Part shown: in pieces, positions 21,787 to 64,000 of the stretch | Numbering within the stretch: position 1 is the first letter of the stretch | Layout: the number at the start of each line of letters is the position of its first letter | Origin: an uncultured virus (IMG/VR IMGVR_UViG_3300024999_000092) | Lineage: Duplodnaviria > Heunggongvirae > Uroviricota > Caudoviricetes | Strand: one strand, 5' to 3' | Length of the DNA stretch: 64,000 nucleotides | IMG/VR virus record: IMGVR_UViG_3300024999_000092 | Position numbers and translations under genes: made by a program | Notes under the pieces: model-generated | Seen by the model: only the letters and a program-made list of their open reading frames with translations | The model's database searches: none | Told to the model about the DNA's origin: nothing

Positions 21787-23796
21787 TTACTGCGGTGCTT
21801 GCTGCTCTTGCATCATTCTTACCACTTCTTCCTCTTGTAACTCTGGAGGCAATTGCTCCAAGTAATCTCTTATCTCAGGAGGAAGTGAATTTATAAACTC
21901 CATTACCGGATCGACTTCCGGCGGCATTTCTTCTTGCGGTTGACTAGGAGTAGTATTATTTTTCATTGCTTCCTGTTCCATTGCCATTTGCTGTTGCTCT
22001 GCCTTTAACTTATTCATTCTCTCCATAACCTCAGATATTGGAGGAAATTTTCCGTATTCCATAACATAGAAAAAAGTTTCCGGATCAATAACACTAGCAA
22101 CTAACAATTCCTTTGCAATCTCCATATGATACATGCGGTCACTAGGTATTACCGATGAAACTTTGCAGTAGCAGTCGAAGTCGGGGAAGTATTCTTCAAT
22201 GTTATTCTCGATGTATTCCGGCGGCAATGTCCTTCCGTCCGGCATCATAATTTCCCCTGTATCGAATTTACCTACCTGATTATACGGAACAGTAGTACCA
22301 CTTTCCCTGTCGTATACCTTTTTCATATCTCCGGCATCAAAGGTATCGTATTTGTATCCGTCCTTACCTTCATCGCTCTTACCCATAATACGGTAGGTTC
22401 TTTGTTCGGTATAAAACTGACCGATTAAGCGGTTAGTAAACTGACCGGCATCCTCATATGAGGAATTAATTGCCTGTTCTGCTGTTCTCAATCTTATCTT
22501 TGCCTGAGAAACCAACTCAGCAATTGCCTTAAATGCGGTTACACTGCCGGGGGTACGTCCTTGACTTACATCGAAGCGACCAATCATACCCTCCATGGAC
22601 TGCTGTAACCGTCCCATTTCAGCTATTAAACTGCCGGGGATAGGTTGCCCGTGTTCCCTTTTGACTCCGCTAACATCAGCAACAGGGAACCACATACCGG
22701 GGGCAGTACCTCTTTCCTCAATCAACCGTCTTTGCTTAGGAGTTAGCGCCCTCTCGTCATACCAAGTCTGACCAATCGCACCATGAATATGACCTTCGAG
22801 TATAATCTCAGCAGTCTTATTACGGACAATCTGCGGATTTTTAAGATAAAAGGCATCACCAAATCCCCAAATACTGTTCTCCCTGGGATATCTTTGCCTT
22901 ACGAAAAACGGAAATATCGGAGTTTCGCCGGGTTCAAAATACATATAGTTATTGTGTTTAAGGTAAACCCCTTGATGTTCACCTGCCCACAGGATAACGT
23001 GCAATCCTATACCTTCGTCTTTCTCTCCATCAGCCAAAATCATTGGCCTACCGATATACCATGTTTCAACTACCGGAACCTGTTCCTGATTGTATGAGCG
23101 ACTAAATCCCTCAGTATCTAATTGCTCAGTATCCAGCAAATCATCATCATGTAAACCCTGTTCTTGCACTAAATTAGCACGATCCGGAAAGGTTTCTTTG
23201 ATATACTCCATCGTTTTCCAGACAGGTTTATGACAACGATTTCCCTCATTAATATCCTCCCTACATCTTGCGTCAGGGACTAAGCATAACGGGTGCAATG
23301 CTTTCCAGCGCACATCACCCTCCCAGCGGTTCGGACCTTTACCGCCTCGCCAATTGGAATCCCAGTACACATGCCAAATGCCTGTGCCGTATAAGAAAAA
23401 CCACCGAAGAAACTTAATTCTCTCAGAGGTTAACTTATTCTTGTAGAAGATATACTTTTTAAGGTTAGTCATGGCATTAGACTTTTCTTCGTCGCCCGGT
23501 TCAACGCCGTAGTCGATAAGTTCAATCTCATTAGCAAACTCGGCTACAGTTCCTTCTATTAAAGAGAAGGTAATATTTTCAACGCTGTTTGGCCTGTTTT
23601 GTTGTTGCGCCTCAGTTCTCAATGGACTACCATTCGGGCCAAGTAAATCCCAGTGACGAGAGGTATATAGTTTATACATTTCTCTCATTTCATCAACATA
23701 GAATTGCCTTGCTGCCTTATCATCGTCATACCAGTCCATACATATTCTTACCGCTTGTTCTTCTTCGGGAGAGTTACCTCTTATTGATGTTTCCAT
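21787..23796 (-). CDS. Portal protein (P22-like)
   Basis: 669 aa; RPNSVENIT, FFLYGTGIWHVYWD, LKNPQIVRNK, GRFDVSQGR motifs; Gln/Glu-rich C-terminus. Confidence 0.85.
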   Translation of the reverse strand: METSIRGNSPEEEQAVRICMDWYDDDKAARQFYVDEMREMYKLYTSRHWDLLGPNGSPLRTEAQQQNRPNSVENITFSLIEGTVAEFANEIELIDYGVEPGDEEKSNAMTNLKKYIFYKNKLTSERIKFLRWFFLYGTGIWHVYWDSNWRGGKGPNRWEGDVRWKALHPLCLVPDARCREDINEGNRCHKPVWKTMEYIKETFPDRANLVQEQGLHDDDLLDTEQLDTEGFSRSYNQEQVPVVETWYIGRPMILADGEKDEGIGLHVILWAGEHQGVYLKHNNYMYFEPGETPIFPFFVRQRYPRENSIWGFGDAFYLKNPQIVRNKTAEIILEGHIHGAIGQTWYDERALTPKQRRLIEERGTAPGMWFPVADVSGVKREHGQPIPGSLIAEMGRLQQSMEGMIGRFDVSQGRTPGSVTAFKAIAELVSQAKIRLRTAEQAINSSYEDAGQFTNRLIGQFYTEQRTYRIMGKSDEGKDGYKYDTFDAGDMKKVYDRESGTTVPYNQVGKFDTGEIMMPDGRTLPPEYIENNIEEYFPDFDCYCKVSSVIPSDRMYHMEIAKELLVASVIDPETFFYVMEYGKFPPISEVMERMNKLKAEQQQMAMEQEAMKNNTTPSQPQEEMPPEVDPVMEFINSLPPEIRDYLEQLPPELQEEEVVRMMQEQQAPQ

Positions 23797-24467: not shown

Positions 24468-24486
24468 AATACACCGTCCTCGGTTA

Positions 24487-24588: not shown

Positions 24589-24600
24589 AATAAACGCCTC

Positions 24601-25356: not shown

Positions 25357-25367
25357 ACGGTCCTCCG

Positions 25368-25697
25368 TTATCTATATTTAGTCCCCTCAACCACAAACCT
25401 GTCGCCATGTTTCCTGCCGATAACAACGATCTTAATCAACTGATTATCCGCTAAGTATCCGATTTCATTAGGGCAGATAGCTAGTGGTAATGAAATTTCC
25501 TGTATTTCTTCTTGTTCCTCGGCATCGTCAATAGTATCAGGATCCTCTGAAATACCATCCAATGCCGCCTTAATAATTTCACTTATGTTATCGGTATCAG
25601 ACTCCGTTGCCTGCTTCTTGCATTGCCTACAGTGATTTAGAAACTCACCCTTACCGGCAAACTCACTATCCTCCATGCCGCATGTATTGCATTTCAC
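25368..25697 (-). CDS. Hypothetical protein with N-terminal Zn-finger-like motif
   Basis: CNTC...HCRQC. Confidence 0.6.
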   Translation of the reverse strand: MKCNTCGMEDSEFAGKGEFLNHCRQCKKQATESDTDNISEIIKAALDGISEDPDTIDDAEEQEEIQEISLPLAICPNEIGYLADNQLIKIVVIGRKHGDRFVVEGTKYR

Positions 25698-26011
25698 GCA
25701 TAAAACCCCTTTTCTTCCTCACGTTCTTTGCGTTCCTCGGCAGTTTCTACCTGTCTAACATCGTCCTCGTACATGCCTTCCGGGTATTCAAGGGGAATGT
25801 CAACGCCATCTAGGGACAGGACTGCTCGCATAAGTTTAAGTTGTGTATCTACTAGAGTTTTGATTGTTTCGGCATCAATGTCTGCACAGTCAACGCAGGT
25901 GTTCTCTTTCTCGCTGTAGACAGTTGATGCAAGTATAATAGTCTTATGCAATTCCCCTATCTGATCGTTAAGTATCACTTGATATTCCAGAACAATTGGT
26001 TTTTTATCCAT
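25694..26011 (-). CDS. Hypothetical protein
   Basis: ORF immediately after terL, RBS GGGAG. Confidence 0.6.
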   Translation of the reverse strand: MDKKPIVLEYQVILNDQIGELHKTIILASTVYSEKENTCVDCADIDAETIKTLVDTQLKLMRAVLSLDGVDIPLEYPEGMYEDDVRQVETAEERKEREEEKGFYA

Positions 26012-26029
26012 TATTTAGGTTCTCCCTTC

Positions 26030-28762
26030 TCACATTCCGTAAAATCCAGGCAATCCTTCTTCTTCCTCGTCGTCATCATCGTCTGCCCATTGCTCCATAG
26101 ACATGGGATTAATCCTTATGCCCTTGTCCTGCCCCGGTAGAAATGGTATACTGCCAGTGTCTTTAAGTGGCATCGTCATATGTAAAAATGCAAGTATAGC
26201 AGACATTAAGATAACATCGTCGTGCTGACCACCTCTTGCCGCCTCTTTGGTATTTGGGTGCCTTATAAAGTTATTTGCTTCATGGACAAATCTCTTAAAG
26301 TAGCACTCGAAAACACCTTCGCGTACAGTCTTTTTAATAGCATCAATAATAAGTGGTCTAGTTTTTGTATTTGTATGCCAACCCAATTTTTGAGTAGTCG
26401 TATCTGACCTTTTATCATAAACCTTTGACCTATAAATATCATAGTAAACCTTTTTGAAATGACTAATAGTTGTACCGCCATGATTATTTAACTCTATCGC
26501 CACAAGCGGTTTACCGTAATAAACTGCAATTTTATGTATATAGTCAGACAGTATATCCGGTTCTACCTTGCCATGATACACAGCATCAAGTCTTAATCTA
26601 TGCCTATTAAGAACTCCTACAGCGTCATAGTCACCATGCTCCAACCCTTCCGCAACGTCAGCAGATATAAGGTATTCAATCCCTGCTTCGGGATGAAACC
26701 ATATTTCATAATCACCCTTTACATCAGGTTCCCAATAGACTTGATTTTTGAATTGGTTAGTCCAAACAAGATTACCACGTTCACCGTCGTAACATTTAGT
26801 TTGCATCTCATGTATTCTTTTTACATTAAAAACACATTTACCGGGCATAATAAAACGCCCATATTTCCGCGCTTCTAACTCCGCTTCATCCATAGACGCT
26901 TCAAGACGTTTCTTTTCCTTTGTAGATAGATAGGGGTTGTCATTCCATTCTACCATTATTAGAAATATTTCATCGTCACGTTTCTCAATCGGTTTTGAGT
27001 CGTTCTCATAAATATCAGAATAAACCCATGTCATACCTTGAAGTGGGGTCATTGTACCGAACAAGTCACCCTCAGTATCCATTAAGCGCATTTGTACTTC
27101 TGTATATATATCTTTGGGAGATTCTTCGTCCAACCAACAATTTGAAACCATACATGCTCCAACAAAAAACCTATGATCTTTTTCGATTGATAAGTCATAT
27201 GTTTTTTTGTTGCCTAATGGTATTAGTCCTTTTATCCTACCATATTTTTCTTTTACTCTGTTGTTTTGCTTTTTCCAGTACATACTTTTTTCTGAATCTA
27301 AGCATTTTGCAATTCTACTTCCGCAACCGTCTTTAGATGACTTACTTTCTATGCGTCTATTTGCTTCATCGACAACAATATCAATTGCCTTTTGCTTACC
27401 TTCTATACCTACACGTTCTGCAAATTTAATAACATGGTCAGCAGAACTAATATAAACCCACCATTGGTTGCGCCATGCTCCAGGTTTTTGACTTTTCTTT
27501 TTAGTAAAACTTGAACGTATACCTATTCTGCGCAACAACAAGCAAACATCTTCTGCTAATCTACGCGAAGTCGAGGCGTACCCTATTGTATGTCCTGATG
27601 CCCAACCGTCTCCAGCAAATAAAAAGCGTAAAAAAAGAGCAATATGCTCGTTGTCTGAACGGAAAACCCAATCAGGTACAAACTTTTCATGCGCAAGTCC
27701 AGGAGGTACCGCATCCCAAAACTCAGGCCAATTATTAATATGCCAGTCTGGAACATGATTACAACTCTTAAACTCCTGCTTTCTTATATATGCACCGGCA
27801 GGCAAATATTCTTTGGCAGCGGCAACAATTTCTTCACTGCCAATAGTTATTTTCTTTTCTGACGTAGTTCCTTCACTAAGAACAAGTCCTAACCACGGAT
27901 AAAAACTATCAGGCATATTTTCAACTACATCAGGTTGATAGTCTAAGTCAGACAAATATACTTTATCCGCTTCATTGACTTTCTTCTTTAATTTTTGTGA
28001 AACATAAACTTCGTGATCTTCTGTTAGTTGTATCCACGGAGATTTGCCAGTAACAACATCAAAAACTGGTTTTTCTCCCATATCGTGTTTGGCAATAACT
28101 TTTCTGGTAACTGTCTTTCCGCAACCATTTTTAGTTATAACGCTATCCCCAGGCATGACATTCTGTATTGGTTTATAGGTACCGTCAGACATTAATACTC
28201 GCTGATCTTCAGCAATGCACCAGTGTTGCGATGAACCTTGAAACTTTTCCCGTCCTTGGTCATAGGACTTGAAACCTATAATCCCACCACCAACAAGGCG
28301 TATAGTGTCGATGATACCTGTACTACGGTAAGTTATTTTTTTAATTTCTCTTAGCGGCAGAAGTCCCGGTATTCCAGTCTCAGGATCACCCAATATTTTC
28401 TTTTGAGTAACGTCACGCTGCACCTCAAAAGATACTGAACATATCCAACCCCTTGTAGGTTTACCACCGAAACGAGTTATCAGAGGTTCGTATTTCTCCC
28501 TTAAATCCTCTGGCCAATCTTTAAGGTATGGGCGTATTCTCTCGCCTAATGCAAGGAATACCGCCCTAATTGCACCACTTTCAGTTTTTCCTGTGCGATT
28601 CCCTCCAAGTATCCAGCTATTCCTTTTATTGGATAGAAGAAACTTTTCCTGCTTATCATACGGACGAATAAAGCGAATATGTTCTTCCTTCTTCATCCGT
28701 TCAATTTCACTAAGGATCTTTTGCAGTTCTTTCTTTTCTGCTTTTGTTAACTCTTTTGCCAT
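26030..28762 (-). CDS. terL: Terminase large subunit with intein
   Basis: Walker A GGNRTGKT, FKSYDQGREKFQG, Walker B WLDEE, TMTP coupling motif, nuclease ADVAEG...HDDVI. Confidence 0.92.
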   Translation of the reverse strand: MAKELTKAEKKELQKILSEIERMKKEEHIRFIRPYDKQEKFLLSNKRNSWILGGNRTGKTESGAIRAVFLALGERIRPYLKDWPEDLREKYEPLITRFGGKPTRGWICSVSFEVQRDVTQKKILGDPETGIPGLLPLREIKKITYRSTGIIDTIRLVGGGIIGFKSYDQGREKFQGSSQHWCIAEDQRVLMSDGTYKPIQNVMPGDSVITKNGCGKTVTRKVIAKHDMGEKPVFDVVTGKSPWIQLTEDHEVYVSQKLKKKVNEADKVYLSDLDYQPDVVENMPDSFYPWLGLVLSEGTTSEKKITIGSEEIVAAAKEYLPAGAYIRKQEFKSCNHVPDWHINNWPEFWDAVPPGLAHEKFVPDWVFRSDNEHIALFLRFLFAGDGWASGHTIGYASTSRRLAEDVCLLLRRIGIRSSFTKKKSQKPGAWRNQWWVYISSADHVIKFAERVGIEGKQKAIDIVVDEANRRIESKSSKDGCGSRIAKCLDSEKSMYWKKQNNRVKEKYGRIKGLIPLGNKKTYDLSIEKDHRFFVGACMVSNCWLDEESPKDIYTEVQMRLMDTEGDLFGTMTPLQGMTWVYSDIYENDSKPIEKRDDEIFLIMVEWNDNPYLSTKEKKRLEASMDEAELEARKYGRFIMPGKCVFNVKRIHEMQTKCYDGERGNLVWTNQFKNQVYWEPDVKGDYEIWFHPEAGIEYLISADVAEGLEHGDYDAVGVLNRHRLRLDAVYHGKVEPDILSDYIHKIAVYYGKPLVAIELNNHGGTTISHFKKVYYDIYRSKVYDKRSDTTTQKLGWHTNTKTRPLIIDAIKKTVREGVFECYFKRFVHEANNFIRHPNTKEAARGGQHDDVILMSAILAFLHMTMPLKDTGSIPFLPGQDKGIRINPMSMEQWADDDDDEEEEGLPGFYGM
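27140..28219 (-). mobile_element. 360-aa intein with LAGLIDADG homing endonuclease
   Basis: Block A CIAEDQRVLMSDG, block B LTEDHEV, motifs WLGLVLSEG and FLRFLFAGDG, block F/G TYDLSIEKDHRFFVGACMVSN followed by Cys+1. Confidence 0.9.
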
Positions 28763-28785
28763 GTCCTCACCTGACTAATAACCGA

Positions 28786-29364
28786 TTAAATAACAATATA
28801 TCTAATATAAGCAAACCCAACAATCCCGGCAGAAGCACCAGAGGCAACCGAACCCGTTACCCACTTAGCGGATGCCAACTTCTGACGAGATACGCCGTTT
28901 GTACCCTTGTCGGTAATATTATCAAATACCCCGGCAGCAGAGTTAACATCTAATCCGTCAATTAAGTTATCAATCTTTGTGGTTGCAGAAGCAGCAGTAG
29001 TGCCGCAATCTAGGGTACATGCCTCGGTAGTTTTGGTAGTTACATCAAGAAATAACCCAGTAACGATAATAGAAGCACCTTCATCATTCTGCCAGGAAAA
29101 TACACCACCTGCCGTATCGACTGCGGCGAGTGCTATTTTAGCAACCTTCTCGATGCGGTCAGCATTGTCTATCTGATTTAACTCTTCTGTAGATAGCGTT
29201 GCTCCATTTAGAATATCTAACTCCGCTGCCGATGCCGCTACTGCTACACCAGATTGATATAGACCACCTGTAGACGATGCTACCTGCACCTCAGAACCGG
29301 GCGCACCTACAAATAAACCTTCTTCACCGGATGGTTTTCCGATGTGTGAGTATTCTTTTGCCAT
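28786..29364 (-). CDS. Probable virion structural protein located upstream of terL
   Basis: Ala/Gly/Ser/Thr-rich, ASAAELDILNGAT fibre-like repeat, beta-rich C-terminus. Confidence 0.5.
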   Translation of the reverse strand: MAKEYSHIGKPSGEEGLFVGAPGSEVQVASSTGGLYQSGVAVAASAAELDILNGATLSTEELNQIDNADRIEKVAKIALAAVDTAGGVFSWQNDEGASIIVTGLFLDVTTKTTEACTLDCGTTAASATTKIDNLIDGLDVNSAAGVFDNITDKGTNGVSRQKLASAKWVTGSVASGASAGIVGFAYIRYIVI

Positions 29365-29376
29365 TATTATTCCTCC

Positions 29377-29919
29377 CTAGAATGATAGTTTATTATCCTT
29401 TAGCACCTGATATAAACCTGCTTCAAGTGCCGTTATTTGCCGATGCTCCAACTTTAATTCAAGATTATGGTCAAGTGCCTCAATAATCTCATGCAGTAAA
29501 GTTGACTCAATCTGACTTTGAGTTTTGTTTTTATTTAAGCGGATAGTATTGGTGTTTGAGTTCATACTGCCGAAATTAGATGATTCGTTATCGTCAATTA
29601 AGATAATATTAAATGAATGACCGAGGATTTTCAGTTTGCTTGGGATTTTGCCGCCAATAAAATCTCCTTGTAGTTCTGTGCTGAAAGACTTATCTGCGCC
29701 GACATCAAGAACACGATGCTTATTAATAGAATAAGGTATCTTCTTTTTATCTGCCCATGCAATCATGTCTGACAAACCAACGCTACCCGCAAATGATGAA
29801 TGTGTGTTTTTGCTTGCAATTATCTCTGCCGCAATAGTTGTTTCCTTTTCATGCTTTCTGTCAACAATAAACCATCCATTAATACATTTAACATAAAAGT
29901 TTGACTCATTAAATGTCAT
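29377..29919 (-). CDS. Protein with C-terminal metallopeptidase-like (ImmA/IrrE-like, HExxE) domain
   Basis: IPSKLKILGHSFNI...STLLHEIIEAL. Confidence 0.55.
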   Translation of the reverse strand: MTFNESNFYVKCINGWFIVDRKHEKETTIAAEIIASKNTHSSFAGSVGLSDMIAWADKKKIPYSINKHRVLDVGADKSFSTELQGDFIGGKIPSKLKILGHSFNIILIDDNESSNFGSMNSNTNTIRLNKNKTQSQIESTLLHEIIEALDHNLELKLEHRQITALEAGLYQVLKDNKLSF

Positions 29920-30046
29920 TATCTACACCGTCCTCGGTTTAATTTATCCCACTTAATTCCATAAACTCTCGGCATTATAGAGAGAATTTTTTAAAATTTT
30001 GGGTGCCGATATTTTAGGTTTTCTGTTTGTGTATGGGGATGGGGGG

Positions 30047-30286
30047 TTATAATTCCGCTATCTTTAGCTCAATGCTGTTTTTAATAATGCCTAAAATATT
30101 AGACAGATTATCATTAACCATATCTTCCCTGCCGATAGATACCGTGATACTAATGTTATATTTATTAGTAGAACAATCTTTATTAATGGATACATCAATT
30201 GAATCTGATAGTGCTAGTTGCTTTCTCCAATAGTTGTCGAATGATGGAGATACTGTTACTTGGTCATTAATGTTATCGTTGCACAT
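30047..30286 (-). CDS. Hypothetical protein
   Basis: ORF with RBS GGAGGTG. Confidence 0.5.
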   Translation of the reverse strand: MCNDNINDQVTVSPSFDNYWRKQLALSDSIDVSINKDCSTNKYNISITVSIGREDMVNDNLSNILGIIKNSIELKIAEL

Positions 30287-30306
30287 GATAGCACCTCCGT
30301 TCTCGG

Positions 30307-30612
30307 TTAGTTAATCTTCCTAAAACTGTAACCTTTATATTCTTCAAGTTGTAGTTTAAGCATCTTAGCAACGGTTTCCTTGTTGCCTTCACTAACAATA
30401 TCATTGACTACATCTTGACCATATGCCATGACAGCACCGTAAGTAAATAACGATATGACATAATCAGGACCAATAGTTTCATATATAACCTTAGCACCTT
30501 CACTTAGTTCATCGAATGACTTTTCTTTAATGATGAATAGCAGCACTTCCCTACTATCATCTACCTGCTTTTGAAGTTCTGGAAATAGTGTGCTTAATAT
30601 TTTCTCTGACAT
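30307..30612 (-). CDS. Hypothetical protein
   Basis: ORF with RBS AGGAG. Confidence 0.55.
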   Translation of the reverse strand: MSEKILSTLFPELQKQVDDSREVLLFIIKEKSFDELSEGAKVIYETIGPDYVISLFTYGAVMAYGQDVVNDIVSEGNKETVAKMLKLQLEEYKGYSFRKIN

Positions 30613-30935
30613 TTCAGTTCTCCTGTTCTCAGTTAATGATTGATGATATTTGAGTGATTTTTAAAAGTTGATGATGTATGTGATGGGAGTATATACCACC
30701 CACAAGGCACCCCTGGGGTCGATTGTCCTTACCGGGGGGTCTAGCATCCATACAGGTCACGCGCACCCACAATAACTAGGCACACATACAACATAGTGTC
30801 ACAACCCTGCGCCTGCGAATGTGGGTAGGTACGATGAAATGTCCACCAGTGCAGGACAATTGGCGTTTTTAGTACCCGTAATAGTACCGGCAAATAGAGA
30901 AACCCAGTAAATACGCGGTCTACAGGGTTTTAGCT

Positions 30936-30963
30936 AGTTGACATAATATTTATTATCGGTACT
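30936..30963 (-). other. dif-like XerC/XerD recombination site
   Basis: Minus strand AGTACCGATAA-TAAATA-TTATGTCAACT in 11-6-11 layout; compare B. subtilis dif ACTTCCTAGAA-TATATA-TTATGTAAACT (XerD arm 10/11 identical). Confidence 0.8.
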
Positions 30964-30970
30964 TGACTAG

Positions 30971-31420
30971 CTAATCTCCAATAAGTTCGCGCGCTCTCCG
31001 GGCCAACTCTGCGCTGCTGACTTCTACTTCTACAGGTCCACCGTCAGCGCCCGTGAGCTCCAGCTTTTGAGTGTCGGACCATCCAAAGTTATTCGTGAGG
31101 CTGAATTTTGCTCCCCTGTCGTTGCCCTCAAAAAGCTGTTCCTCGGTAAATACTTCGCATCTTGAACGGGCGCGCGAAACTGTGGGGAAATATTCGTCGT
31201 CTTGAGAGTAGTTATAGAGCGTTTTCCGGTCGCATCCTAAATAGAAAGCTAATCCGCTCAATGTATATGGTCTTTTCGCGTTCACCGATACAACATTGCC
31301 TTGTTTTGTCACCTGCTCTATCGTTCGACTATCGCAATACGCGAAATACTCGTCAATCCTGCCTTGCAATTCCTCAACACTCGTAAATTTCAACGGTCTT
31401 CCTGCTGGCATCCCCTTCAC
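30971..31420 (-). CDS. terS: Terminase small subunit (P22 gp3-like DNA-packaging protein)
   Basis: GRPLKFTSVEELQGRIDEYF, PYTLSGLAFYLG, GAKFSLTNNFGW, ELTGADGGPV. Confidence 0.85.
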   Translation of the reverse strand: MKGMPAGRPLKFTSVEELQGRIDEYFAYCDSRTIEQVTKQGNVVSVNAKRPYTLSGLAFYLGCDRKTLYNYSQDDEYFPTVSRARSRCEVFTEEQLFEGNDRGAKFSLTNNFGWSDTQKLELTGADGGPVEVEVSSAELARRARELIGD

Positions 31421-31472
31421 CTCGATATTTTAAGTTAATCAAAGCTATTCTTCGATAAACGGTAATAATTCG

Positions 31473-32063
31473 TTATCCTTTAGCCATGTACGAACGATTC
31501 ACATAATAACAATCGTCCTTCCTGTACGCTACACCAGCACCGGCCAAAGCTGACATTCTTCTATAGAAGTTTCGTTCCGGCATCTTCAATATACGAATCA
31601 AATCGTCTGCGCTCAGTTTTTCCTTTTTCCGCTTGTCTGTCAATGCTCCATTGTCCCAGTCAATCAACGGCGACAACTTCACCAAAAATCCCATATCTGC
31701 ATCACTCAGTTTTGCGCTCAGTTCCACCAATTTCTCATTGTATAGCTTCACGTAGCCTTTTTTGTTCCCTGTACTACGCTTTTTTGGCGGTTTCAGTCCC
31801 TTTTTCGTATTCCAGAACTCGTAATAAGAATGCTCTATGTCCTTATCACGAATACTAATGTGTTCAGACTGCTTGTCCGGAGACTCTTCCCTGGTGAAAA
31901 TAGTTTGCGCGACAGTAGCGCTGACTCCCAGCGGAAATATTCCTTGCTCAGGTCTATTGTGCCAAACTTCGGCCAGCATTTCGCCGGTTTCCGGGTCTAT
32001 GACTTGTCGCCTTGTCCTGCCATATCCGAAGTCATCGTCGAGAATCAAGCATCTTTTTATCAA
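31473..32063 (-). CDS. RepL-like winged-helix protein (Firmicute plasmid replication family)
   Basis: VIDPETGE, YVKLY, HTH (ADDLIRILKMPERNFYRRMSAL), C-terminal YYVNRSYMAKG. Confidence 0.55.
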   Translation of the reverse strand: MIKRCLILDDDFGYGRTRRQVIDPETGEMLAEVWHNRPEQGIFPLGVSATVAQTIFTREESPDKQSEHISIRDKDIEHSYYEFWNTKKGLKPPKKRSTGNKKGYVKLYNEKLVELSAKLSDADMGFLVKLSPLIDWDNGALTDKRKKEKLSADDLIRILKMPERNFYRRMSALAGAGVAYRKDDCYYVNRSYMAKG

Positions 32064-32306
32064 GCTAAAAACAACTCACTTTCGTATATATATACTGCTT
32101 TTCACGCAACAAACCAGCAAAGCCTTGTCGCTCTAGGGCTAGATGCCATTTTAGCACCTGCCAAATATGGCAGGTAGAAATCATTTCTACATACATAAAA
32201 ACAAAACAAAAAACACCCTCTCAGGTGCTCCGTAAACGATATATCCCTACTCAAAACAGTAGGTCCATAGCTAAAAAATAAGCAGGTATAAAACTCCCAC
32301 ACTACC

Positions 32307-32315
32307 ATTTTATCA
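32307..32315 (-). promoter_or_regulatory. Extended -10 of the probable activator-dependent late promoter
   Basis: TGATAAAAT with no clear -35, upstream of the repL-terS-terL operon. Confidence 0.45.
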
Positions 32316-32452
32316 CGACTAAACCCCGAAAACAAGCAAAACTTTCCGTTTTCGCCGGTTTTCTTGTGTTTTATGCGGAATAAAATAACTGTTGACTATG
32401 GGTATCCATATATGATAGTATAGTAAAAATAAATTAAGCGGGAGGAATACTA

Positions 32453-32671
32453 ATGAAAATTCAATATATCGGAGAAGTACCTGATAGCGCAAGAACAATA
32501 GTGAAAGGATATATCAGCGATATTCTGAAAGGCACAGAAAATGATAAATTTCTAGTCTGTCCTGAATATACTAAGTCGGATGAATTAACAAACTTCCTAA
32601 AAAACTTCAACGGCGAAGATAATTTAGTTTACGACAATGAAACATGGTATTATATCTACCCTAAAAACTAA
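32453..32671 (+). CDS. Small early hypothetical protein with its own promoter and terminator
   Basis: RBS GGGAGG; hairpin AACCGCC/GGCGGTT plus T-tract follows. Confidence 0.7.
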   Translation: MKIQYIGEVPDSARTIVKGYISDILKGTENDKFLVCPEYTKSDELTNFLKNFNGEDNLVYDNETWYYIYPKN

Positions 32672-32762
32672 CCGCCTAAACATGGCGGTTTTTCTTTTCT
32701 TTAGAGCTGGGTTGCCATATGGGTATCCGTTATAGTATACTATCCCTGGAGGTGATTTTAAA

Positions 32763-32963
32763 ATGTCAGCAAAAAGAAAAGAAAAATATAGAGACGGTTG
32801 GGAAAGTTTCAACCTGCGCCTGTCAACCGAGGATAAAGCAAAACTAGCCGAAATGTCAGCAAATACGCGGGTTCCGGCATCCGAAATAGCTAGAAACGCT
32901 ATCAAAAAAGAACTTGCGGAACTTCAAAAAACGCTGAAAAAGGCAGATACAGCTAGTATCTAG
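32763..32963 (+). CDS. Ribbon-helix-helix repressor of the early island
   Basis: SFNLRLSTEDKAKLAEMSANTRVPASEIARNAIKKEL; flanked by operator copies. Confidence 0.8.
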   Translation: MSAKRKEKYRDGWESFNLRLSTEDKAKLAEMSANTRVPASEIARNAIKKELAELQKTLKKADTASI

Positions 32964-33108
32964 TAGGCATGTTAAGCTGGATACCCATAGATAGCTGAAT
33001 ATAAGGTTATTTGAGGCTTTACGGCATGGGTATCCATAAGCTATACTAAGCACATGGAACACAACAACAAAATAACAAACGCCCACAGAGGCGAAGGAGG
33101 ATAATAAA

Positions 33109-33507
33109 ATGACAATGACAATTCAAAACTTCATCGAGCAGAATAAAATTAAAATGTCCTGCGAGTATGCAGACAGCAACCCAAACATGGCAGACTCCGC
33201 AAACATGAACCATTATAAGTGTCAACTTCGCAGAAGCGGAAAGCAACTAACAATTAACTTTTCACAGGGTTATGGAATATCAGGAGATCCGGAAGTTGAA
33301 TCAGTATTAAGTTGCTTGGCATCAGATTCAATAGGGGTAGAAAATGCAGGAAATTTTGAGGACTGGGCGCAGGAATACGGATACGACACAGACAACAGGA
33401 AGGCAGAAAAAATATATAAAGTGTGCGAAAGACAGTCGCAAAAATTAAAGAATTTCCTTGGAGAAGAATTATACGGTAAATTATTATGGGAAACCGAGCA
33501 ATACTAA
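33109..33507 (+). CDS. Early hypothetical protein
   Basis: RBS AAGGAGG; FEDWAQEYGYDTDNRKAEKIY motif. Confidence 0.75.
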   Translation: MTMTIQNFIEQNKIKMSCEYADSNPNMADSANMNHYKCQLRRSGKQLTINFSQGYGISGDPEVESVLSCLASDSIGVENAGNFEDWAQEYGYDTDNRKAEKIYKVCERQSQKLKNFLGEELYGKLLWETEQY

Positions 33508-33562
33508 CCCACCTGACGAGTGCCGGACGGTAACCGGTCGAATCCCCGAAAGGGGAAGTGGG
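33508..33562 (+). ncRNA. Type I hammerhead ribozyme fold (variant core)
   Basis: Stem I CCCAC 33508-12/GTGGG 33558-62; core CTGACGA 33513-19; stem II 33520-39; GAA 33540-42; stem III TCCCC-GAAA-GGGGA 33543-56; single unpaired A33557. Confidence 0.75.
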
Positions 33563-33593
33563 AAACCAAACTAAATACGAGGAGGATGCACAC

Positions 33594-33749
33594 ATGAAAT
33601 ATCAAGGATTAGTAGTTGACAGTTTAAAGTCACTGGATACCAAAAAAACCAAATCTTACGACACCTACAAAGAGGCACACGATGCAGCCGAAAAACTCTG
33701 TAAGCGCACGATGGGAGATAGAGGTAAGGTCGAAGTCGAAACCCGCTAA
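33594..33749 (+). CDS. Small early hypothetical protein (51 aa)
   Basis: Start moved to MKYQ at 33594 with RBS GAGGAGG. Confidence 0.65.
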   Translation: MKYQGLVVDSLKSLDTKKTKSYDTYKEAHDAAEKLCKRTMGDRGKVEVETR

Positions 33750-33940
33750 GTCTACTCCGTGAAGGCCGGAGCAGGAGGCCAAAAACCTCCTGACAGTTCA
33801 AGGGTTATCATTAGACCCAGCGCACCGACAGCAACAAACTACCAACAGAATACGAAAAACCCCACAGCGCAACCCGGTGAAGTCTGCATGATGCGGATCA
33901 AAGGGAGCGAACACTGGATACGAGGCTAACGGTGCTAGAT
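33750..33940 (+). ncRNA. Candidate ~190-nt multi-stem structured RNA
   Basis: Intergenic; nested helices GTCTA/TAGAT, CTCCG/CGGAG, CAGGAGG/CCTCCTG, GGGTT/GACCC, GCACCG/CGGTGC, CCGGTG/CACTGG, TCTGCA/TGCGGA. Confidence 0.55.
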
Positions 33941-34026
33941 ATGCAGAAAAGGGGAAGTTTAGGTTTTATCCAAACGCCTTCGATAGAGGGAATTTCGATA
34001 AAACTTAAACAAAGGAGATTGATAAC

Positions 34027-34311
34027 ATGAAAAACATGACAGTTAGAGAATTATTACCGACCATTGGGATCATAGAAAGCGTTATCGATGAAGTTATCGG
34101 AAACCTTGAAATGTCAGTATCGAGAGGTTACGACATCAAATCCAGAGGAATCAGAACAGATAATAAAGTCCAAGTAGTAACGGTTTCACCGAATGTAAAA
34201 TGGACAGATGGAACCTGCAGACCAGCTTATGGCGGTAGGGAATACGAGGTAACGATTTACCTAAACAAATTAACAGATGTAAATTTAAGGAGGGTTTTTG
34301 ATTTACAGTAG
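34027..34311 (+). CDS. Early hypothetical protein
   Basis: RBS AAAGGAG directly after a long hairpin. Confidence 0.7.
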   Translation: MKNMTVRELLPTIGIIESVIDEVIGNLEMSVSRGYDIKSRGIRTDNKVQVVTVSPNVKWTDGTCRPAYGGREYEVTIYLNKLTDVNLRRVFDLQ

Positions 34312-34378
34312 AACCTTTTTAGGTTTTACCTCTGCATCCTGCCGGGTGTGGAGTTAAAATCTAAGGAGGATGATAATT

Positions 34379-34639
34379 ATGAATTATGAAAAATTAACAA
34401 AGTTAATGAACGGCGAAACTGTTAAAGTTGGTAAGAAAAATAATCAAATATACCTCGATAAAGCAACAGACTTGTTTGTAGTTGAAATGTATGAGTTTAC
34501 AAGTGATTTGGAAGGTGAGATGTTTAGTATTGGTGATAGTTTTGAAAACATTGAAGTTGCCGTAGCAGTAGCCACTAGATATACATGCGAGACTTATAAC
34601 TATGAGGTACAGCAAAGATTATTAAAACAGTTTGCATAA
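34379..34639 (+). CDS. Early acidic hypothetical protein
   Basis: RBS AAGGAGG directly after a long hairpin. Confidence 0.7.
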   Translation: MNYEKLTKLMNGETVKVGKKNNQIYLDKATDLFVVEMYEFTSDLEGEMFSIGDSFENIEVAVAVATRYTCETYNYEVQQRLLKQFA

Positions 34640-34721
34640 AATAACCATTAGGGACTCCGGTCCCTGCTTCGCCAAAACTCCTTTAGAGAGGGGTTTTGTT
34701 GAGGTAAAGGAGGGGTTAGCC

Positions 34722-34913
34722 ATGATGTTCACATTCGCCGCATCGATCTGGCACAACAGCACCAAGAACGAAATCATGGGCCACATTATGAACAATATCA
34801 AGGGTAGTGAGTTTAAAATCACCGAGGAACCAGACAATAAGATTAAGAATGTCGGCAAATTTGAGTATGAGAGTAGCGAGGGACTTGACTATCACATCTA
34901 CAAAATTAAGTAG
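34722..34913 (+). CDS. Early hypothetical protein
   Basis: Start moved to MMFTF at 34722 with RBS AAGGAGG. Confidence 0.6.
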   Translation: MMFTFAASIWHNSTKNEIMGHIMNNIKGSEFKITEEPDNKIKNVGKFEYESSEGLDYHIYKIK

Positions 34914-34925
34914 GAGGATAAAACT

Positions 34926-35195
34926 ATGAAAAAAGGCGACATTGTAGAAATTAAAGGCGGTTATTTCAAGGCAGACAATGGACTTTTCCGTGTAGAGCAA
35001 GCACCGGGAGATCCGGGTTGGTTAGGCAATGACTGGTGCCTATACCGAGTCAATAAAGATTATACCTACTCCAAGAGTAAACACAGAACAGCATTTTGGC
35101 CGCTTATGGTTACGGTATCAAGTCGCGAAAAACGCATAGAAGCAAAAAAGCACAACGCCGAACATGCAACGATTGAAGTTATAAGACCAGCTTAA
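34926..35195 (+). CDS. Early hypothetical protein (KOW/SH3-like start)
   Basis: MKKGDIVEIKGG; RBS AGGAGG. Confidence 0.7.
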   Translation: MKKGDIVEIKGGYFKADNGLFRVEQAPGDPGWLGNDWCLYRVNKDYTYSKSKHRTAFWPLMVTVSSREKRIEAKKHNAEHATIEVIRPA

Positions 35196-35263
35196 TTTCT
35201 GGTTTATCCTAACCTTAAACGAGTTAGGATATGCGAGGGATTAAATAAAGGGAGGAATAAATA

Positions 35264-35890
35264 ATGAAAACTTTATATTTTGAAGGTGCCGGAAGTGTAC
35301 CGCGCGGAATGGTTGAAAACTGCCGCATTAGAACAGCTTTTCATAATGACAAGGGAGAGGCCATCTACTTAGAAATGTCTGGTTTTGAAGTAACTAAAAA
35401 CAGTCCCAGAAGTATCAAGCAGTTTACTTGTGCCGGATTCGTTGACCATTGTCATTATATTATGGGTGACGATGATTGTAACAAGCACAGCATTGTAGAT
35501 ATGAGGCACAAAACATTTGAATACAACAAATCCGAAATACTTAGTATTGTAAATTCTCTGGGATGCAGTTTTGACGAGGTTGTTATTCTTCCCGACTTAG
35601 CCGGTTATCGCGTTTTTAAGGATCGCGAAGGTCACAACTTCGGTGATGAATTTCAATTTAACGCAGAACTCGCCGCACGCGCAGAAGAAATCAGGGTCCA
35701 TTTTTACGCACTAGAAAAAAGCGAGGGTAAGAAATACCCTAACTTTTCACTATGGGTTGACCAGGATAACAAGGAAATGCTTCACTTGTTGCGACATTTT
35801 AACGGCTATAACAAGCACTGGTCAATAGTAAATAGCGAAAACTGGCAGGAAAGCATAGTCGAAACCGTATTTGGAAAGTACGCCTGTTAA
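35264..35890 (+). CDS. Early hypothetical protein
   Basis: 208 aa, LYFEGAG...NCRIRTAF; RBS GGGAGG. Confidence 0.75.
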   Translation: MKTLYFEGAGSVPRGMVENCRIRTAFHNDKGEAIYLEMSGFEVTKNSPRSIKQFTCAGFVDHCHYIMGDDDCNKHSIVDMRHKTFEYNKSEILSIVNSLGCSFDEVVILPDLAGYRVFKDREGHNFGDEFQFNAELAARAEEIRVHFYALEKSEGKKYPNFSLWVDQDNKEMLHLLRHFNGYNKHWSIVNSENWQESIVETVFGKYAC

Positions 35891-35990
35891 TATACAAATT
35901 AAAACTCCCCGGTAGCTGTTGCGAGCAGTAAAACCGGGGAGCAGGGAAAATATTTAAGTCACACATATTATAACATAGGAGGGCGACTAA

Positions 35991-36390
35991 ATGAGTGCTT
36001 ATGTAGTAGACAAGGAAACCATTGACCGTATTGTAACTTATATCCACAGACAACACATTGATATTGACATTATTTGCAGTTATTATCCAGAAATGGCGGA
36101 AGCATACAAAAGGCGACTGCAACAAACTAGGCCAAAAGATGCTGACAATGAACAATAAGGCGGTTGACTATCGTTATAATGAGAATAACCCCATTGAGAT
36201 TTACAAGTATAGTTATGTCGTTGCTAGTTTAGTACAGGTTTATAAATCCTTGCAATGCTTTTTATACCAATGCAGTGAGGGAGATATTCCGAAGTCGAAA
36301 CTTTTCCAAGGTTTACGCAGACTAGAGCATAATATAGCTAATCAAATTATCTCCAATATGCCGGAATACAACAAGGCACAATGGGGTTAA
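35991..36390 (+). pseudogene. Early gene split by a +1 frameshift
   Basis: ATG 35991 (RBS GGAGGG) reads MSAYVVDKETIDRIV...AEAYK; the other frame continues GDCNKLGQKML...QCFLYQCSE...AQWG; span is 400 nt; extra A in AAAA 36108-36111. Confidence 0.65.
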
Positions 36391-36476
36391 TAGGGACACA
36401 CGTCCCTTGCCTAAACTCTCTAGTAGGAGGGTTTAGGGAGGGGATCTCCAATATTATGAGGGAGGTTTTACTTATT

Positions 36477-36746: not shown

Positions 36747-36810
36747 TCTTTCGTTATCTCCTGCCGTGTCAGGGGATGCCGAAGGATTATATTAAGAGGG
36801 AGGAATACCG

Positions 36811-37068: not shown

Positions 37069-37083
37069 AGGGAGGGCAACACA

Positions 37084-37505: not shown

Positions 37506-37540
37506 AGTTTCCTTCCTCTGCCTCTTATTTTTAGAAAGCT

Positions 37541-38844: not shown

Positions 38845-39378
38845 TCAATCTCCCTTCTTCTTCCGCTTCTTCTTGACCTCCGACTTGCCATGCAGAGCGT
38901 CAATAACTTCCTGTTGATATGCCGTCAGACCGTCCGTATTGCCCATATAAGCTAGTCCAATATGCACAAGTACCGCCGCATCCGTTTCGTCGTTTGTACG
39001 GCACTCTATGCCCCATTTTTTGTACGCCGCAACTGCTATTTCTTCCTTGCTTGCGTTAGCCTTTCCGGTTGCGAATTTCTTTAACTGCATAGTCCCAACA
39101 ATTAGCAATTTCTTATTCATTTCTTTAATTAGGACTCTTAATACGCCGCCCAGTTCTCCTATTTGGTGCGCTTGATTAGTTCTTGAAAAGGCATAATCTT
39201 CTAAAACAACTAAGTCGGCAAAGATGATGTTTTCTCTTATTTCTTCCCTTATTTCAATAAGTCTATCTACGCCTTTTAACTTACTTTCTATGCGCTCTGT
39301 AGCAGTTTTTAGGTTAAATCCGTTACTTACCGCTAACCCTGTACCTGTCAGGGACGCATCAATGCCCACGACTTTCAT
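38845..39378 (-). CDS. RuvC-like Holliday junction resolvase
   Basis: VVGIDASLTGTG, VVLED, LKKFATGKANASK, NDETDA. Confidence 0.85.
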   Translation of the reverse strand: MKVVGIDASLTGTGLAVSNGFNLKTATERIESKLKGVDRLIEIREEIRENIIFADLVVLEDYAFSRTNQAHQIGELGGVLRVLIKEMNKKLLIVGTMQLKKFATGKANASKEEIAVAAYKKWGIECRTNDETDAAVLVHIGLAYMGNTDGLTAYQQEVIDALHGKSEVKKKRKKKGD

Positions 39379-55369: not shown

Positions 55370-55603
55370 TTAATTAAGTAAATCGGAACTGGATTCAGTT
55401 TCTATCATCAGATCAATAACATCACAATTCAAAGCGGCAGCAATACGCTGTAACGTATTGAGGCCAGGGTTAAGATTTTCTCCAACTTCTAAAAGACTAA
55501 TTTTTTGTTGGGTAATGCCGGTTGCTTCGCTGAGTTCTCTTTGTAATAATCCCTGTTGTTTACGTCTCTTAGCAATATTTAACCCAACACGTTTCAAATC
55601 CAA
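55370..55603 (-). CDS. Cro-like XRE-family HTH regulator
   Basis: RRKQQGLLQRELSEATGITQQKISLLEVG...NPGLNTLQRIAAAL. Confidence 0.85.
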   Translation of the reverse strand: MDLKRVGLNIAKRRKQQGLLQRELSEATGITQQKISLLEVGENLNPGLNTLQRIAAALNCDVIDLMIETESSSDLLN

Positions 55604-55629
55604 ACTGTTTGTCCTCCTTTCAGGGTAAT

Positions 55630-55767
55630 AATACTGGAAACAGTATTTCTATGCAAAAAATTAAAACCGTTTTTCTATTACTATTATACACCTTTTACGG
55701 TGTATGTCAACTGTATTAAGTAAATTTTTCTGTTAAATTGTCGTTGCCAAAAAATAATCTATATACT
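55630..55767. promoter_or_regulatory. Divergent genetic-switch promoters and operator palindromes
   Basis: AATACTG-GAAA-CAGTATT 55630-47; ATACACC-N6-GGTGTAT 55686-705 inside leftward TTGACA-16-TATAAT (55710-55683); rightward TATACT 55762-67. Confidence 0.7.
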
Positions 55768-55813
55768 GAATTAAGTAAGGGCAATATAATCAATACATAA
55801 GGGAGGGTGTCTG

Positions 55814-56218
55814 ATGGAGATTAAAGACAAACTGTATAATTTGAGGAATAACCGAGGTTTAAGCATGGATGATCTATCTCTAAAAACTATCACAAGCGAG
55901 TGTCCGAAGGCCGTATCAACCAACACCATTGCGGAAATTGAAAGCGGAAAAAGACAAAGTCCCGGAATAAAAGTGATCGAAAGACTTACTACCGCACTTA
56001 ATGTATCACCTATGTACTTCTTTAGTGAAAACGCTCGTACTGTTTTTGACATTTCCGAGGTTAACGAGGTATTGACCGATGAAATTAAGCAAATGCTACT
56101 TGATAAGGAAACCTTGCCATACCTGTTACTGGCTAAAAAGGCGTACACTGACCAAATACCGCCTGATATTGTCGAAGAATTACTGAAAACCATAACAAAG
56201 GTAAGAAATATGCAATAA
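55814..56218 (+). CDS. CI-like XRE repressor (no S24 peptidase domain)
   Basis: LRNNRGLSMDDLS...TIAEIESGKRQSPGIKVIERLTTALNVS; divergent from the cro-like gene. Confidence 0.8.
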   Translation: MEIKDKLYNLRNNRGLSMDDLSLKTITSECPKAVSTNTIAEIESGKRQSPGIKVIERLTTALNVSPMYFFSENARTVFDISEVNEVLTDEIKQMLLDKETLPYLLLAKKAYTDQIPPDIVEELLKTITKVRNMQ

Positions 56219-62380: not shown

Positions 62381-62602
62381 CTACCTCCCAATCATCCTAT
62401 TATGATTCGCAACAACTCTCTTATCCCGTATCTTCTCCCAGGCATCGCCGTACAGCGACTCCATCCGCTTATTGAATATCTTTTCCTTGCGCACCTGCTT
62501 CTTATAATACTTCTCATGGTCAGGCGTATTGTCCGGCGGGCCCAAATGATAGAGAGTACCCAAAATCATTCCAATGCCCCGACCTGCTCCCGATAAACTC
62601 AT
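62381..62602 (-). CDS. Hypothetical protein
   Basis: ATGA-coupled to the upstream gene. Confidence 0.5.
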   Translation of the reverse strand: MSLSGAGRGIGMILGTLYHLGPPDNTPDHEKYYKKQVRKEKIFNKRMESLYGDAWEKIRDKRVVANHNRMIGR

Positions 62603-63240
62603 TTAATCACGTCCTTTACTTCGCTCATTAGACAAACATAAAACACAACTTTACTGCCTTTAATCAACTTCTCGATCCTTGCCTTATCCTTAAGATTATC
62701 AACAACTACGACAACTCTAGCAAACTTACCCGGCATCGGCCAATCCTCGGCATCCCATTTACGACTAAGCGCATATTGCTCGTATTGCTGAATCTTAACC
62801 GACATATCGGAATGATTAATCGCCCTCTGATACTCAACGAAATACGGCCTGTTTTCGACCACTACAAACGCATCAGCTATGCCAATACCATAATCAAAAT
62901 CACTCTTAAATACGGGGTTAATATGCCGCAAATTAATGAATATCTGATTAATACCTAACCTATGTTCAACGTGCTTTGGCTGCTTACCCATCCAATAAAT
63001 ATAATCGTTACAGGACATACACCTGCCTCGATAAATTAACTTTGCATCAAAGAGTTTCTTTAACTCCGTTCTGCATTTGTGCTGACCATAATTGGAATCA
63101 TCAAACAATAACTGATTAACTTGCCGACGAGAAAGAACACCAAAATCTTTAAGAAAATTAATAATATCAAAACGTCTTTGAGTAGAACGAATCGGAAAAC
63201 TAACAAAAGCCAAATTTTCAGCAGACATAAAGGCTAACAC
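62599..63240 (-). CDS. Replication-relaxation (Replic_Relax)-like protein
   Basis: Winged HTH (FGVLSRRQVNQLLF), HRLGIN, IADAF...FVEYQR...KIQQY PD-(D/E)xK-like motif; next to FtsK. Confidence 0.75.
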   Translation of the reverse strand: MLAFMSAENLAFVSFPIRSTQRRFDIINFLKDFGVLSRRQVNQLLFDDSNYGQHKCRTELKKLFDAKLIYRGRCMSCNDYIYWMGKQPKHVEHRLGINQIFINLRHINPVFKSDFDYGIGIADAFVVVENRPYFVEYQRAINHSDMSVKIQQYEQYALSRKWDAEDWPMPGKFARVVVVVDNLKDKARIEKLIKGSKVVFYVCLMSEVKDVIK

Positions 63241-63296
63241 CTCACATTTAAAACAAGTGGTTTATAATACGCGGATTGATAAAAGTATCGGTATGT

Positions 63297-63506
63297 CTAC
63301 CAACTTAAATTATTCTGTCGCTCCTTCAAAGATTTGATATTTTCAGCACACCATTCACTCGTAAAATTTAATGTATAGTTCATTAACTCAACCCTTCTAT
63401 TAAGAGTATTTACTATTTCCTTAATGTGATCTCTTTCGATAATCATAGCGACAGTAACTTCTCTAAGTACTTCAACAGACTCAAGCATAAAATCTAAATT
63501 ATCCAT
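63297..63506 (-). CDS. Small coiled-coil hypothetical protein
   Basis: ORF between the FtsK-like and Replic_Relax genes. Confidence 0.5.
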   Translation of the reverse strand: MDNLDFMLESVEVLREVTVAMIIERDHIKEIVNTLNRRVELMNYTLNFTSEWCAENIKSLKERQNNLSW

Positions 63507-63509
63507 ACG

Positions 63510-64000
63510 TCACCAACTTAAAACCTCCTCGTCTTCCTCAGTGGCTAAAACGGTAACAACATTGTCGGACGGATATACCTTTTTAATCATCTTCTTAATC
63601 ATGCCAGGGTGCAAATCCATAACCTGCACCTTCCGCATCCTCTCTTTGGCCTGAAATATACACCTGCCGGGACATTCGAGATATGCCGCTTGGTTGCGTT
63701 CTTCGCCCAATACCATTCTACTATACCGGCGAGAACTCACCTTAAAGGCTATCGTTGCCGGTATTAACGATCTAACCTCGCCGGATACAACCTTACATGA
63801 AGGGTGCTGCGTGCAAATAATCGTGTGGATCCCAGCAAACCGACCTTGTTGCACCAGCGTTAACGCTAACTTTTTTGCATCTTCGTCAAGACTCATCCAT
63901 TCATCAATAACGATAACGGCATGAGACATTTTATCCTTGCCTACCTTGTTGTAATCGGCAATAGAGGACACGTTGGCTTTGCTAATCAACTTAGCTCGGT
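63510..64000 (-). CDS. FtsK/SpoIIIE-family ATPase, C-terminal part (truncated by window)
   Basis: IVIDEW, QQGRFAGIHTIICTQHP, IAFKV, AAYLECPGRCIF; frame stays open to the window edge. Confidence 0.85.
   Translation of the reverse strand, partial: RAKLISKANVSSIADYNKVGKDKMSHAVIVIDEWMSLDEDAKKLALTLVQQGRFAGIHTIICTQHPSCKVVSGEVRSLIPATIAFKVSSRRYSRMVLGEERNQAAYLECPGRCIFQAKERMRKVQVMDLHPGMIKKMIKKVYPSDNVVTVLATEEDEEVLSW

Follow-up and report, generated by a model that had tools for sequence, protein, structure and literature searches.

A putative host-type dif site beside the terminase small subunit gene of a recombinase-free tailed phage

We analysed a 64,000-nucleotide stretch of DNA from an uncultured virus of the Caudoviricetes (IMG/VR IMGVR_UViG_3300024999_000092; hereafter the window), which comprises most of the genome of a tailed phage. 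The runs that contain this phage are groundwater and sediment metagenomes from two studies. The window, which lacks a recombinase gene, carries a putative host-type dif site, real and conserved, directly after the terminase small subunit gene (terS). On balance, we consider it somewhat probable that XerC and XerD (XerCD), recombinases of the host, recombine copies of the phage genome with each other at the packaging end, and not the phage with the chromosome. It is the position next to terS that points to recombination between duplicated genome ends or genome copies as a third reading beside integration and plasmid dimer resolution; the three readings are not mutually exclusive. The features are summarized in Table 1.

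Table 1. Positions of the dif-type site and of other features of the window
Feature	Position	Strand	Basis
dif-type XerC/XerD core site, 11-6-11	30936..30963	-	single in window; chance 0.005 or less
XerC-side arm AGTACCGATAA	30953..30963	-	identical arm in chromosomal sites of G447, G454; family mean pairwise identity 0.82
6-bp central region TAAATA	30947..30952	-	5/8 distinct family sites; chromosomal sites of 8 genomes
XerD-side arm TTATGTCAACT	30936..30946	-	1 mismatch to B. subtilis dif; family identity 0.95; identical in G513, G515
Terminase small subunit, P22 gp3-like; candidate pac region	30971..31420	-	PF16677, phrog_606
Conserved non-coding module, XerD side; C-run/G-run element near 30710-30740	30630..30935	-	alignment of 8 family sequences
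Terminase large subunit with intein (Hint + LAGLIDADG)	26030..28762	-	Pfam/PHROG; intein-free orthologues L130, L140
P22-like portal	21787..23796	-	PF16510
RuvC-like Holliday junction resolvase; could complete an XerC-only exchange	38845..39378	-	phrog_159
Divergent HTH pair: Cro-like 55370-55603 (-), CI-like 55814-56218 (+)	55370..56218		HTH_3 matches
Replic_Relax gene; FtsK/SpoIIIE-like ATPase, C-terminal portion (no gamma domain)	62599..63998	-	Pfam/PHROG

The site reads AGTACCGATAA TAAATA TTATGTCAACT on the minus strand, a canonical 11-6-11 core of the dif type that begins 7 bp after the terS stop codon. The initial annotation had described an 11-6-11 site whose XerD arm is one base off the B. 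subtilis dif, and counting confirmed this: with the B. subtilis dif printed in PMC3025954 (partial text) as the reference, there was one mismatch in the XerD arm, one in the spacer and four in the XerC arm, 22 of 28 bases being equal. The layout and the canonical XerD arm also support its assignment of the core to the XerCD (host) type. The XerC arm has the ATAA/AGAA end of dif-type sites, and the core is non-coding, single-copy in the 64 kb and conserved in its arms. From base composition, the core ATAA-N6-TTATGTHAAMT is expected by chance 0.005 times per 64 kb, and a tighter pattern, picked post hoc after the data had been viewed, 6e-5 times. The site is like the chromosomal dif/XerCD system (CodV-RipX in B. 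subtilis) in its 28-bp 11-6-11 core. Unlike chromosomal dif, it lies on a phage and is tied to terS instead of the replication terminus, its spacer drifts among close relatives, and the three KOPS and two SRS octamers in the 64 kb form no oriented set.

The terS product matched Pfam GP3_package (PF16677) with an E value of 2e-21 as well as phrog_606, and a PDB search gave a weak match to the P22 gp3 chain 3p9a (E 0.29); the matches of the PDB searches did not class the packaging mode. In P22, pac lies within terS, and packaging proceeds toward the terS 3' end with ~105% of the genome per head (PMC8575938, partial text). About 300 bp of conserved non-coding DNA adjoins the XerD side of the site. 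This module matched no Rfam family, its promoter-like matches were near chance, and it held no excess of promoters or terminators. Contig depth was higher downstream of terS in runs X1 and X3, although the depth of contigs cannot reveal genome ends. No nucleotide relative of the window was found among cultured phages, and the portal match reached only 24%. The large subunit gene (terL) carries a LAGLIDADG intein; its relatives either have no intein or carry another insertion near residue 57. In a cluster of small plus-strand genes at 33000-37000, short segments shared by the contigs of four runs are joined in many different ways, which suggests cassette shuffling among strains.

A terL search returned 76 loci, 14 of which, with at least 78% identity, form the close family, several loci being the same phage. 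The site follows terS in 10 of these 14 loci, 2.0-4.2 kb upstream of the terL match. The other four begin 1-2373 bp before terL and are too short to reach it, and the conservation in relatives that had been set as a check was thus found in 10 of 10 loci with enough upstream DNA. In the 62 distant terL loci, many of them without upstream DNA, the pattern matched in two and lay upstream of terL in one, and the distant terS relatives L003, L007 and L008 had no site after terS. The site follows two unrelated terS families (phrog_606 and phrog_4044). The mean pairwise identity among the eight distinct family sites was 0.82 for the XerC arm and 0.95 for the XerD arm, compared with 0.68 for the spacer and 0.54 for the next 20 bp. 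Five spacers were TAAATA, and GAAATC, TAAGTG and TGTGCA occurred once each; the 6-bp spacing was constant in all eight family sites and in six of six sites from cultured phages. Arms conserved above spacer and flanks are as would be expected for a site that recombines with its own copy; such a reaction does not require the spacer to stay fixed, which would account for its drift. Elsewhere in the genomes of the relatives G002 and G004, the pattern gave two further weak matches. Locus L009, which starts 9 bp before the site, was rejected as a junction or independent locus; it is 100% identical to the window and contains no host DNA.

The initial annotation saw no integrase in the 64 kb, and this was borne out. 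Neither an integrase nor a resolvase family was found among 88 + 12 window ORFs (Pfam, PHROG). A tyrosine-recombinase HMM was built from fetched loci, and its first round recovered 13 sequences at E<1e-8 in bacterial control loci; when applied to six frames, it found nothing in the window (best E 0.47), G002 or G003. The window is cut within an FtsK-like ORF and, judged from relatives of 70-72 kb, lacks about 6-8 kb. The completeness rating of both G002 (72.3 kb) and G003 (69.9 kb) is 100%, and their sequences are circular permutations with respect to the window. A search for an integrase elsewhere in the genome, carried out in these near-complete relatives, yielded none. In five family records, PF00589, PF00239 and FtsK_gamma were each matched in none, while the positive controls matched in 14, 12 and 8 of 14 genomes, respectively. 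A Pfam scan of 95 further ORFs (95 of the 120 listed) detected no integrase or Par family.

Other genes recognized by Pfam or PHROG encode a loader of the DnaC type, a protein with the C-terminal domain of Spo0A, an anti-repressor and an excisionase-like HTH protein. The Spo0A C-terminal domain stands alone (43637-43963, minus strand), is 33-38% identical to host Spo0A and is conserved in G002 and G003. The product of 51787-52806 (minus strand) matches PF18897 ('recombination directionality factor-like'), and its conservation in G002 is 89%; the phage itself has no serine integrase. As G003 has an AAA_24 protein at about the same place, the product may act in strand annealing or recombination. 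With respect to the structural genes, the early/replication block (38490-63989) of the window and G005 has the opposite orientation to that of G002, G003 and G004; the window showed neither an invertase nor a long inverted repeat. Near one border of the inversion, a TnpB-like gene of G002 (28072-29202; L207:8072-9202) adjoins the FtsK-like gene.

A repressor pair without an integrase would suit a circular plasmid-prophage, in which the site only resolves replication dimers and its place beside terS is incidental. Putative plasmid prophages of Bacillus count Replic_Relax among their replication genes, and a dimer resolvase, which this phage lacks, is encoded by most circular plasmid prophages (PMC8026635, partial text). 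Genomes that assemble circularly permuted or doubled, together with the spacer drift, fit as well. However, no ParA, ParM or TubZ partition system gave a Pfam match in the window, G002 or G003 (minus two border-spanning G003 ORFs and unmatched ORFs below 100 aa), and the portal had no close plasmid relative. A plasmid-prophage also leaves unexplained both the fixed place after terS and the site in terminal repeats of probably virulent phages. We regard this reading as rather improbable; for the resolution of circular prophage dimers that had been suggested at the outset, these searches turned up no sign of a plasmid prophage.

If the site were instead the attP of a tailed IMEX, lysogeny would proceed by XerCD-mediated integration at chromosomal dif, which would split terS from terL. 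Like the IMEX elements CTXphi, VGJphi, TLCphi and GGI (PMC5357621 and PMC9226527, partial texts), the phage is a mobile element that carries a dif-like site and no integrase, even though it has the CI/Cro-like pair, the anti-repressor and the excisionase-like HTH. Integration at chromosomal dif had also been proposed in the initial annotation, with attL/attR junctions as its check. A metagenome scan for the XerD arm with phage flank gave nine matches, namely two unrelated ones and seven family loci, all with terS upstream. None of the seven family metagenome contigs, a small sample of a kind that drops rare variants, contained a phage-host junction. Phage flanks were found beside chromosomal dif in none of 38 loci, again a small sample. 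A single unbranched contig spans the site in runs X1 and X3 and shows no difference there, although contigs drop rare variants. Two of the seven family loci are identical 6-kb stretches that lie 72,185 bp apart in a 153-kb contig, and this indicates a redundant or doubled circular genome. Run X5 had loose ends at 30900 and 30964. A related phage is their probable source, since a stop codon that overlaps the site, as it does in Bacillus phage Blastoid, terminates the loose letters.

We surveyed 162 genomes in the class of a Peptococcaceae genome (Bacillota) for chromosomal sites. The dif core pattern matched in 79 genomes, and a reversed control gave six matches. The window site shares 25-26 of 28 bases with chromosomal sites in one Bacillota class, and eight of the 79 matching genomes, all of that one class, have the TAAATA spacer. 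This overturned our first argument that TAAATA is not a host spacer, which rested on 120 bacterial loci, 9 of them with an A at position 3. In G513 and G515, the chromosomal site, GGTTCCTATAA TAAATA TTATGTCAACT, lies among housekeeping genes and equals the window site at 25 of 28 bases, with spacer and XerD arm identical, and the site of the relative L132 at 27 of 28. In the comparison with host dif set as a check, the spacer and XerD arm of these genomes, which are candidate hosts only, equal those of the window, and three of the eight family spacers differ. The phage helicase has homologues of 62-71% identity in seven genomes of the same class, the only class compared. These similarities suggest a host within that class. 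The Spo0A-like protein is 33-38% identical to proteins of four genomes. A host search with longer homologues was empty, no CRISPR-like match was found between window positions 18000-37999 and the 162 genomes, and the capsid gene was present in none of 401 sampled genomes. In several low-GC uncultured bacteria (L226-L228, L256, L258, L259, L270, L273, L282, L290 and L295), a tyrosine recombinase gene lies at most 4 kb from a dif-type site, and these loci resemble single-recombinase Xer modules.

The shared spacer and XerD arm in candidate hosts, the TAAATA spacers of the eight genomes and the helicase homologues count for IMEX-type integration. Against it stand the missing junctions, the unbranched contigs, the absence of the capsid gene from the sampled genomes and the spacers of three of eight family sites, one of which differs at both edges. 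In the known double-stranded IMEX, the spacer remains homologous on the XerC side, and the XerD arm of TLC and GGI is degenerate (PMC5357621, partial text), whereas the arm in the window is canonical. Deviating sites escape FtsK-driven excision (PMC9226527, partial text), with which a canonical arm and a drifting spacer fit poorly. Once integrated, a canonical XerD arm would be open to such excision, and we count this for self-recombination. The phage further differs from IMEX as a tailed 70-kb dsDNA phage in which no hairpin attP was seen, and the same layout occurs in probably virulent phages. As far as the comparisons were run, the phage fitted neither the IMEX nor the phage-plasmids, and we consider an IMEX attP unlikely.

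Short BLAST queries detected dif-like sites in cultured phages. In Bacillus phage Blastoid, the site ACTTCCGAGAA TATATA TTATGTAAACT is present at 739-766 and 50263-50290, both copies lying within identical 830-bp terminal repeats, which were defined from raw reads (PMC3853047). That paper, which describes the Blastoid genome, does not mention dif; an FtsK/SpoIIIE gene is present. The site overlaps the stop codon of gp1, which is annotated as terS in relatives and whose phiT1 homologue matches terS families, so that a terS-like gene and dif are duplicated together in Blastoid. A gp1 homologue occurs in 40 records, 11 of which were examined, chosen for spread. The site was found at most 7 bp from the gp1 stop in six (Blastoid, Andromeda, Novomoskovsk, PK-1, Anath and MVC_VPHSA1), with six different spacers, and was absent from the other five. 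Three of the six infect B. pumilus and differ in their spacers, and only Blastoid keeps a B. subtilis-type spacer. A probably virulent lifestyle is ascribed to Novomoskovsk in PMC9658697, the accessible text of which mentions neither Xer nor an integrase. The Andromedavirus unit resembles the window in the dif right after a terS-like stop, the conserved arms, the variable spacer and the FtsK/SpoIIIE-like and resolvase genes. It differs in that these phages are siphoviruses with fixed 830-bp repeats, another terS family and a probably virulent lifestyle, whereas the window has a repressor pair and P22-like packaging genes. The unit is visible in GenBank records and absent from PMC3853047 and from the accessible text of PMC9658697.

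Dif-like sites were also seen at other places in cultured phages. Mycobacterium phage Mulciber (L470, 40187-40218) has one with a 7-bp centre between two GGTGGCTGTCA repeats, and 25 Mycobacterium phage records match; we take the repeats to be stoperator-like and the phage group to be Par-bearing. In Listeria phage P70 (L469, 55361-55387), a canonical Bacillota-type dif lies in an 830-bp gap between gene blocks and not beside terS, and 17 Listeria phage records matched the dif query. In Brevibacillus phage Sundance (L471, near 66811), a dif-type site lies between genes, and BLAST gave another match some 50 bp from it. APSE-1 (L483, 36427-36447) has a partial match to E. coli-type dif that recurs in 10 APSE records; none of the 23 records matched with the E. 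coli-type query was rV5-like.

We further compared the motif ATAA-N6-TTATGTCAACT in viral contigs with a control in which two bases were swapped. Each had at least 119 matches, and 80 loci each were examined with their flanks; removal of the window's twin left 79 motif loci against 80 control loci. Among the matches listed, a terS or terL within 600 bp, counted by hand from PHROG labels, was found in 10 of 79 motif loci and 2 of 80 control loci (p 0.017); when only places beside terS or 5' of terL are counted, the motif loci remain 10 and the control loci fall to 0 (p 7e-4). The neighbours of matches inside ORFs were mostly outside the scan, and one of the 10 (L075) belongs to that group. For non-coding matches alone, the link was weak among the matches listed: 9 of 64 against 2 of 28 (p 0.49), or 0 of 28 when only the 5' side is counted (p 0.053). 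The orientation of the motif relative to terL varies. The putative site of the window is, from these comparisons, part of a recurring terS-dif arrangement. In three viral contigs (L084, L049 and L114), a stretch of 1 kb contains two or three dif-like sites.

The patchy occurrence in cultured relatives (6 of 11) would agree with a relic or a chance match that has no function today. This reading is nevertheless hardly credible: the chance expectation is 0.005 or less, and the arms are kept while the terS gene and flanks change. Among the matches listed, those to the motif also avoided ORFs of at least 200 aa (15 of 79 against 52 of 80 for the control) and carried dif-like XerC arms (35 of 79 against 9 of 80).

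Recombination between copies of the phage genome remains our preferred reading. A host-derived dif core would be kept at the packaging end and bound by host XerC and XerD. Were packaging to begin in terS and proceed downstream, as it does in P22, the terminal redundancy would include the site, and the first headful would contain it twice. By recombining with each other, the two direct copies would circularise the injected DNA, and the same reaction between genomes would make or resolve multimers during replication. Strand exchange might be activated in the manner of cer, perhaps with XerC acting first and the phage resolvase finishing. Phages that lack a recombinase and carry dif at their ends probably borrow the host enzymes in this way to join or separate their own DNA copies.

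Phage P1 carries loxP near pac, in the terminal redundancy, and Cre/loxP cyclises its genome and resolves dimers. The site of the window would similarly be a tyrosine-recombinase site placed so as to fall in the terminal redundancy, a duplication shown only for Blastoid. Cre is phage-encoded in P1, whereas the window phage has no recombinase and would borrow XerCD. The site may thus work in a loxP-like way and yet not belong to the P1-like class, because no recombinase is encoded by the phage. In cer, the accessory DNA is on the XerC side; in the window, unlike cer, that side is terS coding sequence, conserved non-coding DNA lies on the XerD side, and the centre is 6 bp and not 8 bp. Plasmid cer and psi sites (PMC5357621, partial text) are otherwise comparable, in that host XerCD acts on the element's own copies and an XerC-first exchange completed by another resolvase offers a possible route.

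The initial annotation had supposed that the FtsK-like ATPase of the phage could activate XerD. This was not supported because the ATPase has no gamma domain: full-length orthologues are 376 aa long and consist of the ATPase domain only, as judged in five family records. Relatives of this ATPase occur in 407 phage records, mostly of Bacillus. Five pieces covering the giant virion protein of the window gave no FtsK_gamma match at E 1 either. No XerD activator of the phage's own was therefore found in the form of an FtsK gamma domain (XafT is outside the dedicated profiles used). In the accessible text of PMC5357621, neither SftA nor SpoIIIE of B. subtilis is known to activate CodV/RipX directly.

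The lack of an activator, together with conserved arms and a free spacer, would also be consistent with XerCD that binds without recombining, the complex marking, shielding or anchoring the genome end, for example as a translocase stop in a sporulating host. The Spo0A-like and SpoIIIE-like genes of the phage and the FtsK/SpoIIIE gene of Blastoid point the same way. However, the 6-bp spacing kept in all family and cultured sites fits a recombination synapse, and we know of no precedent. Binding alone is thus very unlikely.

Self-recombination is favoured by the place after terS in the close family, the arms kept better than spacer and flank, the Blastoid repeat and the upstream terS in all seven metagenome contigs. 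Several points count against it. A pac in the module that lies downstream of the site would leave dif unduplicated. The site is dispensable, since it is absent in 5 of 11 Blastoid relatives and, among the 62 distant terL loci, just one has it upstream. An AAA_24 protein is present in the early region of a relative, so that closure of the genome may already be achieved by homologous recombination. In addition, no XerD activator was found, the spacer and XerD arm equal the dif of candidate hosts, and a CI/Cro-like pair is present without an integrase.

The closure and multimerisation of terminal-repeat and headful phage DNA are usually ascribed to homologous recombination. Our literature search, which took in PMC8026635, 10.1101/633727 and PMC3603311 and which most subscription papers lay outside, returned no account of a dif site next to terminase genes or within the terminal repeats of a tailed phage. 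It is conceivable, although we lean slightly against it, that many unrelated tailed phages (headful and terminal-repeat, virulent and temperate) independently captured host dif at the packaging end, where XerCD would serve as a borrowed Cre/lox to circularise or concatemerise the genome. If true, this would be a general third use of Xer, undescribed, beside chromosome and plasmid dimer resolution and IMEX integration. A host site-specific recombinase acting at phage ends would mean an added host dependency and a possible point of host defence. The 28-bp marker would help to find genome ends and to guess hosts of uncultured phages, and because cultured B. pumilus phages carry the same terS-dif unit in their terminal repeat, the idea is open to testing in standard laboratory strains.
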